A DNA stretch of 64,000 nucleotides, from positions 3,488,050-3,552,049 of the forward strand of contig CP070695.1 in assembly GCA_020353515.1 (NCBI GenBank). The letters are read 5' to 3'. Below, piece after piece: positions 1,022-7,484 of the stretch. The position numbers and the translations under genes are program-made. Origin of the DNA: Candidatus Heimdallarchaeota archaeon. Lineage in GTDB: Archaea > Asgardarchaeota > Heimdallarchaeia > Hodarchaeales > Hodarchaeaceae. Numbering within the stretch: the stretch's first letter is position 1; the number at the start of each line of letters is the position of its first letter. Under the pieces are notes generated by a model. It saw only the letters and a program-made list of their open reading frames with translations, was not told the DNA's origin and made no database searches.

Positions 1022-2770
1022 TCAAATTATTTCTCCTTGAACAACTTTCTTTTCGTTTGGAGTAATAATATAAAGTGAAAAAACACCCTCATCTATACAT
1101 TTTTTTAATAATTGAATTTCCTTATGAATAGTGATAATTTGATTAAAATATTGAGAAATTTTTGCTTCTGAAGTTGAATCTAGAAGATTTTCACACCAAT
1201 CATTACCTTCTCTTAAATGTCTATAAAACCATCTAAAATTTTGAAATTTCATCTCTCGTGGATATTTAAATTTGATATTGTTATCCAGTAATAATTTGCT
1301 TATTTTATCCTTTAATTCTTCGCTTTTATCCTGAAACCTATGGTAAATCTTCCCCAAGGTAAATAATTTATCTATATCTGATTGAAATTCCATCTCTCTA
1401 ATAATTTTTTCATATTCATTGAATTGAAGAAGTTTGGACAATTTATTACGATATTCTATGCTCCCTGTATCAGAATCAGAGATTAGGGGAATTCGAATTA
1501 AACTAACGTAAGCTTTATCAAAATCCTTACTTGTTACAAATTGTTTTGTATAAACAGCATGACGTAGCCACCATTCAATAAATGACGATTGCAATAGACC
1601 AGCAATAGCATTTAAAGATAAAATTTCCTCTGAATAATTTGGAATGATATTGATTACCGTTTCAAATGTTAGAACGACTCCTTCCCGATCTACCCAAGTT
1701 TTTATGTCTAAAGAATGTTTTGGTTTCGTGTGGTATGAAATTATTCTCTGAGCAATAATTTTGGGGGTTTTCTGTCTCATAAATCTCTTTCTCGGGGTAT
1801 TCAGCTTTAAAAAACTACGAGGGGGTAATAAAAATCCTGGAGCTATATTTACTTTCTCTATTAGAGGATTAAATCCTTTTTCTACTCGATATTTGCTGGT
1901 TAATCCTCGGAAAGCGACCACATCTAAAAATTCATACTTATCACTGTAAAGACGATGAATAATCTTTAATTCTGGATCACTTACTCCCACCAGAAAGTTA
2001 TCTACCATTAAAGCCTCTGAATATGATATGGTACTCATCTGACCAAAATTTTTTTCAATTGGATTCCAAATTCCAGTTTGATATTCTTGATTTTTTGAAT
2101 CTACAATTCCTTTTTTTATAATTATTGCACATTGTTCTTGTAATTGACCAGAGAATTGATTCCCAAGATCAAGAACTTCAACTAACTGATATTCGGTTAA
2201 AAGAATTTTCCTAAACTCACTCCATCTTTTTGAATAAATAATAGGTTTTGGCAAGAGAAAACAGAGGATACCATCTGGTCTTAATAGATTAAGTGATTGT
2301 AATGTAAAAAATACTGAACTTTCAGAATAAATTAGAGAATTATTACCAAAATGGCAGTTTTTTCGAATTCGGATCCATTCGAGTTGTGAATAGAGAGCGT
2401 TATGAGGGGGATTACCAATAATTATATCGAAATTATTCGGTAAGTCTGAAGGAAAATTTAGAAGAAAATCACCCTGAAAAATCTTAATTTTGTAAGAAGC
2501 CTTTTCAACTAATTGAGTTAATTCCTTTTTAGCTATCTTAATCAGAGATGCATCGATGTCAATTCCGTAAAAATTTGTATTTGAAACAAATGAGGAAATC
2601 TGTGGAATCAATGTATAAAAAAAAACTCCCTTACCGATTGCTGGATCTAATACAGATATCTGTCTTGATTTGTTTTGGGGAATTAGATGTATAATTCGTT
2701 CTAAAATTGCTTGTACTAAGGTTTTAGGAGTAAAAAATTGTCCTTTTGATTTCCTTTGTAGATCTTGAAT
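1022..2770 (-). CDS. Gamma-class N6-adenine DNA methyltransferase (Eco57I/TaqI-like); true start lies upstream of the ORF-track call at 2611
   Basis: Frame is open upstream of 2611 and encodes RKSKGQFFTP (motif X) and VLDPAIGKGVF (motif I). Also YGIDID, GDFL, IIGNPPH (motif IV variant) and a TaqI-like C-terminal region. Start codon uncertain. Confidence 0.8.
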   Translation of the reverse strand: MQDLQRKSKGQFFTPKTLVQAILERIIHLIPQNKSRQISVLDPAIGKGVFFYTLIPQISSFVSNTNFYGIDIDASLIKIAKKELTQLVEKASYKIKIFQGDFLLNFPSDLPNNFDIIIGNPPHNALYSQLEWIRIRKNCHFGNNSLIYSESSVFFTLQSLNLLRPDGILCFLLPKPIIYSKRWSEFRKILLTEYQLVEVLDLGNQFSGQLQEQCAIIIKKGIVDSKNQEYQTGIWNPIEKNFGQMSTISYSEALMVDNFLVGVSDPELKIIHRLYSDKYEFLDVVAFRGLTSKYRVEKGFNPLIEKVNIAPGFLLPPRSFLKLNTPRKRFMRQKTPKIIAQRIISYHTKPKHSLDIKTWVDREGVVLTFETVINIIPNYSEEILSLNAIAGLLQSSFIEWWLRHAVYTKQFVTSKDFDKAYVSLIRIPLISDSDTGSIEYRNKLSKLLQFNEYEKIIREMEFQSDIDKLFTLGKIYHRFQDKSEELKDKISKLLLDNNIKFKYPREMKFQNFRWFYRHLREGNDWCENLLDSTSEAKISQYFNQIITIHKEIQLLKKCIDEGVFSLYIITPNEKKVVQGEII

Positions 2771-2784
2771 TTTTTTCCCAACCT

Positions 2785-4743
2785 CTAAATCTCTAGCTCC
2801 TCCAACTGTCTTTGAAGAGCGTAAGCTGTATATGTTTTCCCCGTAAGAACATTCCCACTTATGATTATGAAACGATGATCATTATGACGTATTAAATTTA
2901 CAATATCCTGAATTTTTGTGTTAAAATTCGGTTGACGTGATGAGATTCGAATTAAATCATATTCTTTAGGTGTTGATAGAGCTTTTGGATAAGTCTGAAG
3001 TAAATCCTGATAGCGTCGAAAAATGGAAAGATCAGCATCACTCTTTTTAATAGATGACTTCTCTTGGTCACGAGCGTATAAGTTAAGCTTAACCTCGTCC
3101 TCTGTGGCATTCATATTAATGTATAATGGCCGATATTTTCTAAATTTATCGCCTAATGACTCTCTGTGATTTGGATGAGCAGGCATATTAAAATTTGTAC
3201 CATCAAAAATCACAATGAAATTTTTTCGAAGAAGACAAAGAACAAGCCATTTAGCCAAAGAGTAAGTATGTTCATTCTCCCATCTTATATACTCTGGTGA
3301 ACCATTACGATATAGTTTTCTGATGTGATCTGTTGAAACTACACGTACTTTTCGTGTGATGCGCGTTGTGCATTGAGATAATATTCTTTTTAGATTGTCA
3401 AAGATAGGGAAGAGAGTGCGTTTTTGGTTGATTTGAGGATTAATTTCGACTCTTTCACGAAGAATTTCCAAACAAAATCCAATAAACTCTCTTTGAGAAG
3501 CATACTTCTTATTTATCTCTAGATATTGAATAATATCATCACCATTCACTACAAGAGTGTCTAGTTCGATGGGAGGGTGTATCTTAGCTCTTTCTAGAAT
3601 ATCTGATTTGAGTTCCTTTGTTAATCGTTTTCCTTTACGTACTACTTTTTCTTTAGCTTCATAAAACATTATGTAATCGGATAAATAATCTGGTTTGATT
3701 GAATGTTGAAATTTTCTTATAGAATAATTTCTATCTTCAGTTTTTTCCATTATAGAATAAGGAAGAGGAAGTAAGTGTATTGATAAGATATGTGTTACAT
3801 TTGTTATTTCTTTATTAGAAAATTTCATTCGTTTCATAAGCTCTTGAATGCAGACTTCTTGGAATGGAGGGAAAATTTTCTTTGATGTTTTCTCTAATAT
3901 AGGTAATTGATGAATCAATGTAGCGAAGCGTAATCTAGGTGAGGATTCCTTTGGAAGTTTAGAAATGATTTTCATGGTTAGCTTTATTCTGTTTGTCTTG
4001 AGTTCAGGAAGAATATTTTGGAATTCATCAAAACTGAATTCAGGAATTAGTTGATATAATAACCCACTTTCTTCTAATAGCAAGATAGATTTCTGAAAAA
4101 AAGCTCCGTGTAATAATTTCTGAAATTCTGTGTGTATTCGCTCCTTAGCTACCTTTTCAAACACTTCAAAATGGTGAGGAATTGCATTAAGGGTTTTCTG
4201 CTCAATATCAAATCCTAGTTGGGACACAAATCTAAAAATTCTGAGCAAACGGAGTCCATCTTCCTGTAAACGGTCATGTGGATCGCATACCATTCTAATG
4301 GTTTTTGTTTTTATATCATCAATACCATTAAAGGGGTCTGAAATTACACCACTAATAGGATCATATGCAATAGCATTTATTGTGAGATCACGTCGAGATA
4401 AATCTTCAATGATATCTTTCACAAAATGAACCTCTACAGGTCTTCGGCCATCTATATAATCTCCTTCCTTTCTAAAAGTCGTTACTTCAATTGCTATATC
4501 ATTATATAGGATAGTGACCGTTCCATGTATAATTCCTGTAGGTATAACGCGAAAATTTTTATTAAAAAGATTGGTTACTTCAGAAGGTCTGGCATCCGTT
4601 GCTATATCCCAATCTTCGGGGGTAATATCCCCCTGAATTATGTCACGAATGGATCCACCAACAATAAAAGCTTGGAATCCATGGTTAGTTAGTATTTGGC
4701 AAACGTTGATTATTTCTTTTGGTAAACGATCCTTTACCAACAT
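2785..4743 (-). CDS. cca: Class II CCA-adding enzyme (tRNA nucleotidyltransferase) with C-terminal P-loop kinase domain
   Basis: FIVGGSIRD, DWDIATD, EVTTFR, DLSRRDLTINAIA, EDGLRLLR and ERI class II motifs. The last ~190 aa contain STDHIRK, VIFDGTN and GNVLTGKT. Confidence 0.9.
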   Translation of the reverse strand: MLVKDRLPKEIINVCQILTNHGFQAFIVGGSIRDIIQGDITPEDWDIATDARPSEVTNLFNKNFRVIPTGIIHGTVTILYNDIAIEVTTFRKEGDYIDGRRPVEVHFVKDIIEDLSRRDLTINAIAYDPISGVISDPFNGIDDIKTKTIRMVCDPHDRLQEDGLRLLRIFRFVSQLGFDIEQKTLNAIPHHFEVFEKVAKERIHTEFQKLLHGAFFQKSILLLEESGLLYQLIPEFSFDEFQNILPELKTNRIKLTMKIISKLPKESSPRLRFATLIHQLPILEKTSKKIFPPFQEVCIQELMKRMKFSNKEITNVTHILSIHLLPLPYSIMEKTEDRNYSIRKFQHSIKPDYLSDYIMFYEAKEKVVRKGKRLTKELKSDILERAKIHPPIELDTLVVNGDDIIQYLEINKKYASQREFIGFCLEILRERVEINPQINQKRTLFPIFDNLKRILSQCTTRITRKVRVVSTDHIRKLYRNGSPEYIRWENEHTYSLAKWLVLCLLRKNFIVIFDGTNFNMPAHPNHRESLGDKFRKYRPLYINMNATEDEVKLNLYARDQEKSSIKKSDADLSIFRRYQDLLQTYPKALSTPKEYDLIRISSRQPNFNTKIQDIVNLIRHNDHRFIIISGNVLTGKTYTAYALQRQLEELEI

Positions 4744-4895
4744 TTAAAGAAACCCGACCAGGATTTTTTTTGTAAAAGGTCTTTTTAGATATTTTTAGTA
4801 AAAAGTTTTTAACAATTAGTAAGAAGTACTAATTATCTATAGAGTATATTACGAGTATAAAATCATCTAAAGAAGAATAACTTGAGTCAGCAGGT

Positions 4896-7484
4896 ATGAA
4901 CCAGTTATATTCTAGTTTGAAGCCATATTATGAAAAATTTCTTATCAGGGGTAAATCTTATGGATTATCCTCTCATGAAATTCATGAAATGGCGCTAAAC
5001 CTGTTTATAAAACTTCTGGGTGTTATTATTCTCATATCATGTAATGGTAAGACTGAGGAAAACGGGAACTCTTTGATCAATTTACAAAAAACTAGAAAGT
5101 CAATTCATGAAATCTTATTTCAAAATGATTTACTAACTTCACAACTATTCCCAAATGGAATTCCTCCTATTTTGAATGAATTGCTTGAATTATCTCATCA
5201 AGAGATCCAATTCAAGGATTCTTTATCACCTAAAGAATGGGATACACTCATCGAGCTACTGTTAAAGCAACAATGGACTTTTGCTGAAGATTTTGATGAT
5301 ATTGTGAAAGAAACTCCAAATTCTCCAGGATTTTTATCATATTTTTATGAAAATGTTCTAAATGATTTTGAGAATTTTTTTCGTTTAACTCCTAAAATTT
5401 CTAAAAGGAAACATAAAGGGGTCTTTTATACTCCATGGCGAATAATTCGTGAAATTACTGATAAATGTCTCGATCACCATGTTACAATTAACTCTCATTC
5501 AAAAACAACCAAGAAACTAAGTCTGAAAATATTGGATCCGAGTTGCGGGACTGGTTCTTTTCTTGTCTACACTGCTGAAAGTATTTTTCGACGTCTATGT
5601 AATAGGAAAGAATCGTACAAAATTCATCCACATATGATTGTAAATAGAAATATATATGGTATTGATCTTTCTCAAAGCAGTTTAACTGTTGCCAAATTCC
5701 GACTATTATTTTGGATCCTAAATTTAAATTTAAATTCTATTGATTCACTTCCCACATGGTTGTTTAGAAATATTTGTGTTGGTAACAGTCTATTTGGTCT
5801 TTATAAAGAAAGAATTCAATATCCTTTGGATTATTCAACAGCTTTGAAGCGAATTAATAGATTTCTAGATTTTAAAAAACAACAGGACTTGGTTTTGAAA
5901 GAGAATTGGCTAGAGACAAGTTTTCAGGTAAAAGAGGCAAGAAAAAAGCCTCATTTAAAGAATTCACACCAAAAAGCAATTCAGAGAGCAGAGAAAAATC
6001 TTCTGCGTCTTGTAAATACTTTTTATCAGAATTGGTTGAGAAAACGCCTATATAACTATCCACGTCCAGCACCAATAAAAATGAAAGATTTAGAAATAGT
6101 TACTCCATTCCATTGGAGCATAGCTTTTCCTGAAGTGGTTCTTAAAGGTGGGTTTGATGTAGTAATAGGAAATCCTCCCTATGGAAGGTCAATTCTTAAC
6201 AAAATTGAGAAATCCATGCTTAAATTAATATATAAAGCATGTTCAGGTAAGAATCCAAAAAAATATAGCCTAAATGCCGCTAGTGCTTTCATTGAAAGGT
6301 CAATTACTGTTTTAAAACAAAACGGAACACTTGGTTTGATTGTGCCTTTTTCCATTCTGCGAGTTGAGGAATTCGAAACACTTCGGGAATTCATGTTAGA
6401 AAGAACTATGATCTGGAAAATTAATGATGAATCAGCAGCGTTCGCTGATGTTACTCTGGAAATGTGTTCCATATTCTTGACTAAAAGAGTTGAATCTGAT
6501 TATGAAGTTTCCATAAGTCCTCGACCGAATATTCATGCAGAATCGGCCGTTCCGATTAGTATTTTTAAAAAATATAATCGTTTCATGATCTATTATAACA
6601 AGTTATGGGACAAAACTGTAGGTCAAGGATTAGTCCTAGATGGTGTTGTTAGTGGTGATTACGGAATTGATCATCGAATTCTAAAAAAAGATTTGAGTTC
6701 AGAATTTTCTGATAAATATCCAATATGTTATTTACACTCAGGACGGAGTGTTGCAAAATTCGCATTAAATCCTAAATATTTTCAATGGTCAAAACCTCAT
6801 CCTACAAATGAGAGATTTTCTATTTATTTTCGAGAACCTCGACTTGTTAACACTGCTATTGGTAATCGATTCCGGGTTGCTTATAAACCAGAAAAAATTG
6901 TACCTGGTACTAATGTTTCAATTCTAGAAATTAATCCTTCATACCACTATTTCCCCATGTTAATTTTATTAAACTCTGATCTCATTAATTATCTTTTAAA
7001 GAGATATATTCTCAATTTTAGTCATTTAACGGTTTACCTTCACAAATATTATACTAAATTGATTCCTATCAAGTATCCACATGATTTTGAACAAGAATTT
7101 TCAACACTTGCTAGTTATCTCCTTTTTCTGAATCAGGCATACCTTTGTGGAAAACTAGCTCAGGATAAGCGAACAGATTATTTACTTAATTTAGCGAATT
7201 ATTTAGTTTATGATTTGTATTTTCCAGAAATTTTAGGGATTTCATCAAATTTAGCTGTTAATGTGGGAAAATACTTGAAATCTATAGATATAGAGTCCTT
7301 TCTGGATCTGATACTTTTTCAGGAATCTGAAACCGATCGGGAACGCTTATCATTAGTCATTTCTTCCAATTGGCAGATTATACAAAAGGTTACTAATCAA
7401 TTACGAAGAGATGAAGAAATACGTAAGCACAAAAAGACAATATTTAACCACAAAATTGTAAGACGTATATCTAAAGAGCTCTAA
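4896..7484 (+). CDS. Large gamma-class N6-adenine DNA methyltransferase (Eco57I-like)
   Basis: KRKHKGVFYTP, ILDPSCGTGSFL, IYGIDL, FHW..FPEV..GGFDVVIGNPPY. Confidence 0.85.
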   Translation: MNQLYSSLKPYYEKFLIRGKSYGLSSHEIHEMALNLFIKLLGVIILISCNGKTEENGNSLINLQKTRKSIHEILFQNDLLTSQLFPNGIPPILNELLELSHQEIQFKDSLSPKEWDTLIELLLKQQWTFAEDFDDIVKETPNSPGFLSYFYENVLNDFENFFRLTPKISKRKHKGVFYTPWRIIREITDKCLDHHVTINSHSKTTKKLSLKILDPSCGTGSFLVYTAESIFRRLCNRKESYKIHPHMIVNRNIYGIDLSQSSLTVAKFRLLFWILNLNLNSIDSLPTWLFRNICVGNSLFGLYKERIQYPLDYSTALKRINRFLDFKKQQDLVLKENWLETSFQVKEARKKPHLKNSHQKAIQRAEKNLLRLVNTFYQNWLRKRLYNYPRPAPIKMKDLEIVTPFHWSIAFPEVVLKGGFDVVIGNPPYGRSILNKIEKSMLKLIYKACSGKNPKKYSLNAASAFIERSITVLKQNGTLGLIVPFSILRVEEFETLREFMLERTMIWKINDESAAFADVTLEMCSIFLTKRVESDYEVSISPRPNIHAESAVPISIFKKYNRFMIYYNKLWDKTVGQGLVLDGVVSGDYGIDHRILKKDLSSEFSDKYPICYLHSGRSVAKFALNPKYFQWSKPHPTNERFSIYFREPRLVNTAIGNRFRVAYKPEKIVPGTNVSILEINPSYHYFPMLILLNSDLINYLLKRYILNFSHLTVYLHKYYTKLIPIKYPHDFEQEFSTLASYLLFLNQAYLCGKLAQDKRTDYLLNLANYLVYDLYFPEILGISSNLAVNVGKYLKSIDIESFLDLILFQESETDRERLSLVISSNWQIIQKVTNQLRRDEEIRKHKKTIFNHKIVRRISKEL

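Follow-up and report, generated by a model that had tools for sequence, protein, structure and literature searches.

A single gene of Candidatus Heimdallarchaeota archaeon, a member of the Hodarchaeales, encodes a protein (P0001) in which a class II CCA-adding enzyme is followed by what is, with very high probability on our computational evidence, a circularly permuted P-loop kinase. The gene lies on the reverse strand of contig CP070695.1, within the 64,000-nucleotide stretch that we analysed and refer to as the window (positions 3,488,050 to 3,552,049). We propose that the polypeptide would hold two enzymes, the CCA-adding enzyme and a P-loop phosphotransferase of the AAA_33/polynucleotide kinase (PNK)/PSTK/Kti12 ('DxTN') kind, whose first unit (N-terminal helix, β1, Walker A loop and α1) would have moved to the C-terminus. 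The resulting chain order would be β2-DxxR, β3-DxTN, β4, lid, β5, a connector helix and finally β1-GxxxxGKT-α1. As a whole, a permuted kinase that acts as a phosphotransferase on a tRNA-binding platform is the explanation we favour, and we think it likely to be right.

A permuted kinase had been suggested from the DNA alone, on the strength of four motifs standing in an unusual order, and the translated gene contains all four in that order: DxxR, hhhDGTN, a lid and, last of all, Walker A. The accompanying guess that the DNA came from an Asgard archaeon was also correct. The Walker A position given in that original prediction, nucleotides ~2810-2869, was right to within a few bases. The segment FIIISGNVLTGKTYTAYAL, in which G630-T637 form the GxxxxGKT motif, occupies nucleotides 2815-2871, and the protein ends 15 residues past T637. 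Within the DxxR motif, D472 is a candidate catalytic base and R475 a candidate phosphate contact. Source annotations label the fused proteins solely as 'CCA tRNA nucleotidyltransferase'.

It had also been expected that ordinary hidden Markov models would overlook this domain, and negative scans with both Pfam and NCBIfam bear this out. Residues 460-620 had no match in either library even at E-values up to 10, and the last 41 residues gave only sub-threshold matches, confined to the opening ~30-40 positions of nSTAND3 and AAA_22, both P-loop models. The AAA_33 model (PF13671) did not match P0001 at E up to 10, nor did the Pfam KTI12 model, and a phmmer search of the kinase domain against PDB sequences found nothing. 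P0037, a distant member, reached 16.8 bits against PF13671 (cut-off 27), over profile positions 25-138 only. When 1.84 billion representatives were searched exhaustively with HMMER, only ten clusters matched. One of them, P0043 (195 residues), has the canonical motif order and belongs to Pfam AAA_33, which it matches with an E of 4e-23 compared to 2e-3 for KTI12. P0042, also among the matches, is a repetitive protein that we discarded as spurious, and P0036 and P0038-P0040 (99-170 residues) look like fragments of fused genes.

P0043 provides a canonical partner against which the order of the segments can be read directly. BLASTP of the domain against P0043 produced two pieces in swapped order, with query residues 13-148 aligned to P0043 48-185 and query residues 151-189 aligned to P0043 2-41; the second piece is 40% identical and includes GNV-TGKT. 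Both BLASTP and hhalign place the VRVVSTDHIRK segment on TDAIRK of P0043. The family profile, run against PDB sequences, gave the same swap on the kinase domain of PFKFB3, at weak significance (E 0.002).

We also permuted the family alignment in silico (in Python), placing its C-terminal columns first, and set the permuted alignment against canonical kinases. The canonical profile was made from five AAA_33 relatives: P0043, three proteins of ~195 residues from a sister family and a 185-residue protein encoded in the window's genome. With HMMER, the native profile matched P0043 in two swapped pieces of 15.5 and 27.2 bits, and the permuted profile matched it in one piece, over residues 7-177, at 36.6 bits. 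When 17 cut points were scanned, the single-piece score peaked with the cut at domain residue ~152 (37.9 bits, P0043 residues 7-186) and dropped to 17-25 bits for cuts inside the domain. In hhalign, the native order gave two swapped hits to the canonical kinases (98.0% and 96.1%), and the permuted order a single alignment of 176 columns (99.4%, E 6e-22, score 139). Moving the C-terminus to the front and then searching, the check put forward together with the original prediction, therefore yields a profile collinear with its canonical AAA_33 relatives. By BLASTP and hhalign, the connector helix at residues 607-621 corresponds by homology to the helix before β1 at the N-terminus of P0043, which fits a route to the permutation by duplication and truncation. 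The likely origin is a tandem duplication of a canonical kinase of ~190 residues behind a CCA gene, after which the first copy would have lost its helix, β1 and α1 and the second copy everything past α1.

The predicted structure agrees with this order of segments. AlphaFold2, run on an alignment of 36 domain sequences, gave a model with a predicted local distance difference test score (pLDDT) of 85.9 and a predicted template modelling score (pTM) of 0.83, with five strands at residues 466-470, 510-514, 540-544, 597-600 and 625-629. Over the last ~45 residues the block-mean pLDDT was 90-95 up to about residue 644, and a full-length model of the 652-residue protein reached pLDDT 89.5 and pTM 0.81. 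Once permuted, the secondary-structure elements of the model follow the order of a canonical AAA_33 kinase. A predicted structure in which the C-terminal strand and P-loop do not lie at the centre of the sheet had been named as refuting the prediction; in the model the strand, P-loop and helix are part of one compact domain, in which a central place for the strand is probable.

The model was compared with 48,161 chains by VIA-align 2. The top match was PSTK (3a4l; Z 9.4, root-mean-square deviation 3.0 Å, 136 residues), followed by Kti12 (6qp0) and the kinase of C. thermocellum Pnkp (4gp6), both at Z 8.4, several putative kinases at about Z 8, and T4 Pnk at Z 7.6. The matches to the four named proteins span 116-142 residues with deviations of 3.0-3.8 Å, and by these matches the modelled domain has a three-layer α/β kinase fold. 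In essentially all rows, model residues ~7-168 (~9-168 for the four named proteins) aligned to the target from its residue ~24-40 onward, leaving the β1/P-loop/α1 unit of the target and the C-terminal strand, P-loop and helix of the model unmatched. Mutually unmatched units of this kind are what a sequential aligner should produce when one partner is permuted. A Foldseek search of the domain model against the PDB returned only noise (best E 0.03, TIM barrels), which may itself reflect the permutation.

A terminal unit joined by its own helix could also reach across to a neighbouring chain, and some class II CCA enzymes crystallise as dimers. In a domain-swapped dimer of this kind, the C-terminal β1/P-loop/α1 unit would insert into the kinase core of the partner and the active site would exist only in the oligomer. 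We consider this improbable, as AlphaFold2 packs the unit against its own chain in a confidently modelled monomer (pLDDT 90-95, pTM 0.83) and the β5-helix-β1 connection is of ordinary crossover length.

The fused design recurs across related genomes. A word-indexed search with the C-terminal 213 residues retrieved 33 fused proteins of 599-679 residues, together with a 408-residue entry that is an apparent fragment; the source labels of the fused proteins are Hodarchaeota/Hodarchaeales, Heimdallarchaeota, Promethearchaeota or Thorarchaeota metagenome-assembled genomes. Precomputed family assignments on these relatives comprise only PF01743 and PF12627, rarely also PF13735. We examined conservation in alignments of 19 full-length proteins and of 36 kinase domains, the latter with identities down to 28%. 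Invariant in these are T471, D472, R475, Y485, E489, H492, T493, Y494, T516, N517, N554, R558, E561, S568, A570 and G630-N-V-L-x-G-K636, whereas at least 90% of the 36 domains retain D514 and T637, D514 being replaced by Glu in P0037. The GNVLxGK segment is thus found in 36/36 relatives, and in every protein the chain ends 15-25 residues after GKT. A loss of GKT from the homologues would have spoken against a permuted kinase; the homologues keep the motif.

These alignments also bear on the least probable of the readings we weighed, in which nothing functional was permuted. The same picture might come from a decayed kinase remnant that lost its P-loop, with the beginning of a second copy left behind it, or from an artefact of assembly or frameshifting at the 3' end of the gene, and indeed duplication and truncation would leave exactly such pieces and the start region of the next gene is unusual. 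However, 36 sequences drawn from many separate assemblies share the protein end and the Walker A motif without variation, and AlphaFold2 packs both pieces in one domain. Furthermore, identity to the query is 84-46% for the kinase domain and 78-47% for the essential CCA part, a similar level of conservation, and the kinase domain is therefore under purifying selection rather than an artefact of assembly. Given this conservation, we regard a remnant or artefact as highly implausible. Taken together, the swapped-order matches, the fold model and the conservation uphold the claim of a circularly permuted AAA_33/PNK-like kinase fused to a CCA enzyme.

In a survey of 400 genomes of the phylum, 17 of the 21 genomes of the window's own Hodarchaeales family had a strong match to the permuted domain (E below 1e-76), and none of the 379 genomes outside that family had one. 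The suggestion to look for the same architecture in other Asgard genomes thus led to a single family. A sister family has only canonical-order relatives of ~195 residues, at E 1e-6 to 1e-4.

The N-terminal part, residues 1-459, is a complete class II CCA-adding enzyme of the Bacillota type, with head, neck, body and tail. Pfam PF01743 matches residues 25-150 at 120.2 bits (cut-off 23) and PF12627 residues 177-236 at 55.6 bits (cut-off 22); the best-scoring NCBIfam model, PRK13299, gives 264.1 bits, below its cut-off of 290. The motifs A-E of these enzymes are present; motif A (GGSIRD and DWD), motif B (RRD), motif D (EDGLR) and the flexible loop EGDYIDGRRP are all conserved. With phmmer, the CCA part matched the enzymes of Planococcus halocryophilus (6ibp, E 2e-50) and G. 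stearothermophilus (1miv, E 3e-47), and Foldseek aligned the full-length model with the whole of 1miv_A at E 1e-20, with a template modelling score of 0.82 when scaled to the 395 residues of that target.

No class I CCA enzyme was found in the window genome, a single 4.94-Mb contig estimated as 96% complete with 7% contamination. ARAGORN found 15 intron-less tRNA genes there, and beyond the 3' end that it assigns, no gene is followed by CCA; in two cases the last three bases of the called gene are CCA, which we read as stem plus discriminator base. With tRNA genes lacking CCA and no class I enzyme, the CCA module of the fused protein most likely builds or repairs tRNA 3' ends. The genome also carries a second class II gene of 395 residues (L007 802-1989 on the reverse strand; G000:C1 around 987,000), in which EDGTR is present and the sequence at the flexible loop differs and is non-conserved (EIYSSSGPPE). 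The two class II enzymes may divide CC- and A-addition between them, or one may be a repair or poly(A)-type enzyme. Most genomes of the window's family have both class II copies and no class I enzyme. Across that family, class I occurs in 2 of the 21 genomes and class II in 18, usually in two copies, and the other families of the phylum keep the class I enzyme. This distribution agrees with a preprint that describes Hodarchaeales with only class 2 CCA enzymes, some with A and B paralogues, and full CCA addition by a recombinant Hodarchaeum class 2 enzyme, CCA2 (bioRxiv 10.64898/2026.05.29.728689). The same preprint takes a deleted flexible loop as a mark of CC-adding enzymes; the words 'kinase' and 'P-loop' are absent from it, and the terminal regions are taken there as an alignment artefact (bioRxiv 10.64898/2026.05.29.728689).

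We hypothesize that the kinase domain would be an active ATP-dependent phosphotransferase for which the CCA module serves as a tRNA-binding platform, and that it would transfer the phosphate to a hydroxyl of that tRNA, in the simplest case to a 5'-OH RNA end. The function named in the original prediction, tRNA end-healing or a tRNA-dependent kinase or ATPase, is plausible. T4 Pnk needs K15/S16, D35, R38, D85 and R126 for its activity. Presumably D472 and R475 are the equivalents of D35 and R38, and the family has invariant or near-invariant counterparts in every one of these residue classes: the P-loop Lys/Thr, the Asp base, the Arg, the Walker B acid and the lid Arg. This complete set of counterparts points to an active phosphotransferase, and judging from its motifs the domain probably binds or hydrolyses ATP. 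The identity of the acceptor is a more tentative matter, with RNA or tRNA at somewhat less than an even chance. The most specific version has the kinase phosphorylate the tRNA bound by the CCA enzyme, either at a 5'-OH end or at a ribose hydroxyl, internal or terminal, close to the elbow or the acceptor, coupling CCA synthesis to ATP-dependent repair, marking or quality control; we offer it as a speculative possibility.

Several observations weigh against this picture. The lid motif is NxxxR, in which N554 and R558 are invariant and only the second Arg is kept, whereas PSTK and many AAA_33 kinases have RxxxR. The tail of class II CCA enzymes sits near the tRNA elbow. The kinase domain follows that tail, which would leave it distant from the acceptor end as well as from the anticodon loop, and a simple geometry for a 5'-end kinase does not suggest itself. 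The conserved neighbouring genes encode DNA methyltransferases, with no RNA ligase or phosphatase nearby, and the operons of the nearest canonical relatives give no clue to the substrate. The second class II paralogue means that the housekeeping CCA enzyme could be either copy. Finally, the central place of the relocated strand in the sheet is deduced from homology together with a confident, compact model.

The missing first Arg of RxxxR is also what one might see in a domain that does not phosphorylate at all. Like Kti12, it could be a tRNA-dependent ATPase or ATP sensor that gates, proofreads or releases the CCA substrate. Its fusion to a tRNA-binding enzyme and the presence of Kti12 (6qp0, Z 8.4) and PSTK (3a4l, Z 9.4) among the top structural matches are consistent with such a role. 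However, the Z-scores of kinases and Kti12 are tied within about 1, a spread at which the structural ranking does not separate a PSTK/Kti12-like from a Pnk-like protein, and the sequence is nearest to AAA_33 kinases rather than KTI12, as the two E-values of P0043 (4e-23 against 2e-3) illustrate. Moreover, the Asp-x-x-Arg pair, which in true kinases supplies the base and the substrate contact, is invariant. We therefore hold an ATPase or sensor to be unlikely, though it is the most credible of the alternatives.

Gluconate kinase, chloramphenicol phosphotransferase, APS kinase and nucleoside monophosphate (NMP) kinases appear in the VIA-align 2 comparison at Z 6-8, and the nearest canonical relatives are uncharacterised AAA_33 proteins that adjoin APH-like or HAD genes. 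Both observations would suit a kinase for a small molecule or nucleotide, for example one supplying NMP or nucleoside diphosphate for CCA synthesis or acting on another metabolite, with the fusion serving only to co-localise or co-regulate the two activities. In contrast, the DxxR and DxTN signature fits the group of polynucleotide kinases and PSTK, exemplified by T4 Pnk and PSTK themselves, and the short conserved junction with the tRNA-binding tail and the full-length pTM of 0.81 suggest a fixed, tRNA-centred unit. A small-molecule kinase is thus a rather improbable reading, and a phosphotransferase working on the CCA module as a tRNA platform is the one that we carry forward.

Table 1. Coordinates of the fused gene, of its predicted domains and motifs, and of the flanking methyltransferase genes in the window.
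Feature	Position	Strand	Detail or basis
CCA-adding enzyme and permuted kinase fusion gene (P0001)	2785..4743	(-)	652 aa; stop TAG at 2785-2787
Class II CCA-adding module (head, neck, body, tail), residues 1-459	3367..4743	(-)	Pfam, NCBIfam, Foldseek
Predicted circularly permuted AAA_33/PNK-like P-loop kinase domain, residues 460-652	2788..3366	(-)	AlphaFold2, VIA-align 2, hhalign
Canonical strand β2 and DxxR motif VRVVSTDHIRK (D472, R475)	3316..3348	(-)	strand at model residues 12-16
Canonical strand β3 and Walker B-like DxTN motif IVIFDGTN (D514, T516, N517)	3193..3216	(-)	strand at model residues 56-60
Lid region: N554, R558, E561, KSDAD (567-571)	3031..3084	(-)	conservation; SDAD common to canonical relatives
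Connector helix, residues 607-621, from old C-terminus (β5) to relocated β1	2881..2925	(-)	full-length model
Relocated β1, Walker A and α1: FIIISGNVLTGKT then helix, residues 625-649	2797..2871	(-)	strand 625-629, helix 636-649, pLDDT ~90
Downstream ~581-aa N6-adenine DNA methyltransferase (BseCI-like)	1022..2781	(-)	Pfam N6_Mtase, Eco57I; PDB 7qw5 E 3e-13
Divergent upstream 862-aa Eco57I/TaqI_C-type methyltransferase	4896..7484	(+)	Pfam; PADLOC type IIG/PglX-like

The fused gene lies between two methyltransferase genes, and this three-gene module is seen in the window (1022-7484) and at loci L008, L009, L010 and L012-L022. In each of the 13 related loci whose flank is long enough, the gene of the ~581-residue methyltransferase comes after the CCA-kinase gene, on the same strand; the methyltransferase is 40-66% identical to the window copy, a range similar to the 47-72% of the CCA-kinase protein. 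The ~862-residue Eco57I/TaqI_C methyltransferase stands divergently upstream in the three long loci L008, L009 and L010, among which the genes beyond the trio differ; a third methyltransferase, of ~545 residues, is present in L009 and L010. Class II CCA genes without the fusion, in two other families, have no such methyltransferase beside them, and neither has the short paralogue. The 581-residue protein is most like the DNA methyltransferase M.BseCI. In PADLOC, both flanking methyltransferases match type II/IIG models, and the fused CCA-kinase protein matches no defence system. The fused enzyme may act together with the two methyltransferase genes that flank it.

The downstream methyltransferase has no canonical in-frame start at its beginning. 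Its first in-frame ATG, GTG or TTG is a TTG at 2611 (2611-2790, reverse strand), and the essential N-terminal motifs KGQFFTP and DPAIGKG lie upstream of it. The sequence right after the CCA stop reads TAG AGG TTG GGA AAA AAA TTC, in which an out-of-frame TTG is followed by the A7 run; a -1 shift at this run is one possibility, and initiation at an in-frame ATT another. At the site of an in-frame GTG in the relative L018, the codon in both the window and L013 is GTT. A homopolymer sequencing error was considered as the cause and judged less likely, as L013 lacks the A-run and yet also has no canonical start. A non-canonical start or reinitiation thus seems more likely than such an error.

Farther downstream of the methyltransferase, a stretch that runs before and over the start of the window (L023 3857-6865) contains a 302-residue gene without a family, a weakly metallophosphoesterase-like gene and a 286-residue gene with a sub-threshold match to NTP_transf_5 (26.9 bits against a cut-off of 31.2). 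The genome of P0016 (L008) has a similar 294-residue gene, with an NTP_transf_5 gene nearby.

We also looked at the surroundings of the canonical kinases. At L024 4430-5753, the gene of P0043, the closest relative in canonical order, is immediately followed by a gene for a HAD-family hydrolase, with one base between stop and start, a pairing of kinase and HAD phosphatase that recalls the two halves of T4 Pnkp. In the sister Heimdallarchaeia family, the canonical AAA_33 relatives of ~195 residues are located at L025 3938-4525, L026 3909-4484 and L027 4151-4744, each preceded by a ~1000-residue gene that is split into two open reading frames in L026. Genes of 329 and ~290 residues follow the kinase in L025 and L026, and L027 is without both; they look APH-like and Nfo-like by their first 40 residues alone.

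The case offers a natural permutation of a P-loop kinase in which the cut point is mapped and a canonical-order relative is available for comparison, and it shows that annotation by profiles can overlook such a domain. The enzyme that carries it is most likely the one responsible for all tRNA 3' ends in the Hodarchaeales, an order often placed close to the origin of eukaryotes, in which the archaeal CCA enzyme has been replaced by a bacterial one. If the kinase does act on tRNA, this would be a new CCA-linked repair or quality-control reaction, and an ATP-dependent repair, marking or quality control of tRNA coupled to CCA synthesis is not known in other lineages.

The domain is not described in the literature that we searched on permuted P-loop kinases, CCA-enzyme/kinase fusions and Asgard CCA enzymes, and no report of a circular permutation of P-loop kinases was found there. 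Circularly permuted GTPases, which have the order G4-G5-G1-G2-G3, stay active. The GTPases YlqF/RbgA, YjeQ/RsgA and Lsg1 are thus a precedent for a permuted P-loop NTPase (PMC1262696). They differ from the domain described here in P-loop class and cut point, and share no family-level homology with it.

The comparison with polynucleotide 5'-kinases such as T4 Pnk (1ly1/1ltq) and C. thermocellum Pnkp (4gp6) is closer. In common with these the domain has a five-stranded P-loop kinase fold (Z 7.6 and 8.4), a Walker A motif GxxxxGK[ST], an Asp-x-x-Arg after β2, an hhhD-x-T-N strand and a lid Arg. It departs from them in its permuted order, with β1/P-loop/α1 last, in its NxxxR lid and in having no match to Pfam AAA_33; moreover, its partner is a CCA-adding enzyme instead of a phosphatase or ligase, and its kinase activity is a predicted one. 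The best structural matches, PSTK (3a4l) and Kti12 (6qp0), are a kinase and an ATPase that act on tRNA held by a second domain, although their Z-scores are tied with those of kinases that do not act on tRNA. In both, the P-loop domain is N-terminal and canonical in order and is followed by its own C-terminal tRNA-binding domain, whereas in the fused protein the tRNA-binding partner is the whole N-terminal CCA enzyme, the chain ends 15 residues past the P-loop Thr and KTI12 does not match.

On the CCA side, residues 1-459 resemble the class II CCA enzymes of Bacillota (1miv; 6ibp) over the whole enzyme, including motifs A-E and the flexible loop. Unlike these, the fused protein has ~193 extra C-terminal residues forming the predicted kinase domain, comes from an archaeal host and scores below the NCBIfam equivalog cut-off. 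A second activity on a CCA enzyme is known from the multifunctional CCA protein of E. coli, which combines CCA addition with an HD phosphatase/phosphodiesterase within the enzyme body and is thought to aid the repair of tRNA 3' ends. The added domain of the archaeal protein is instead an appended P-loop kinase, and the NCBIfam model for the multifunctional CCA addition/repair protein gives it 90 bits against a cut-off of 451; nevertheless, in both proteins a second domain, known in E. coli and predicted here to handle phosphate, is carried on the same polypeptide as the CCA-adding enzyme.

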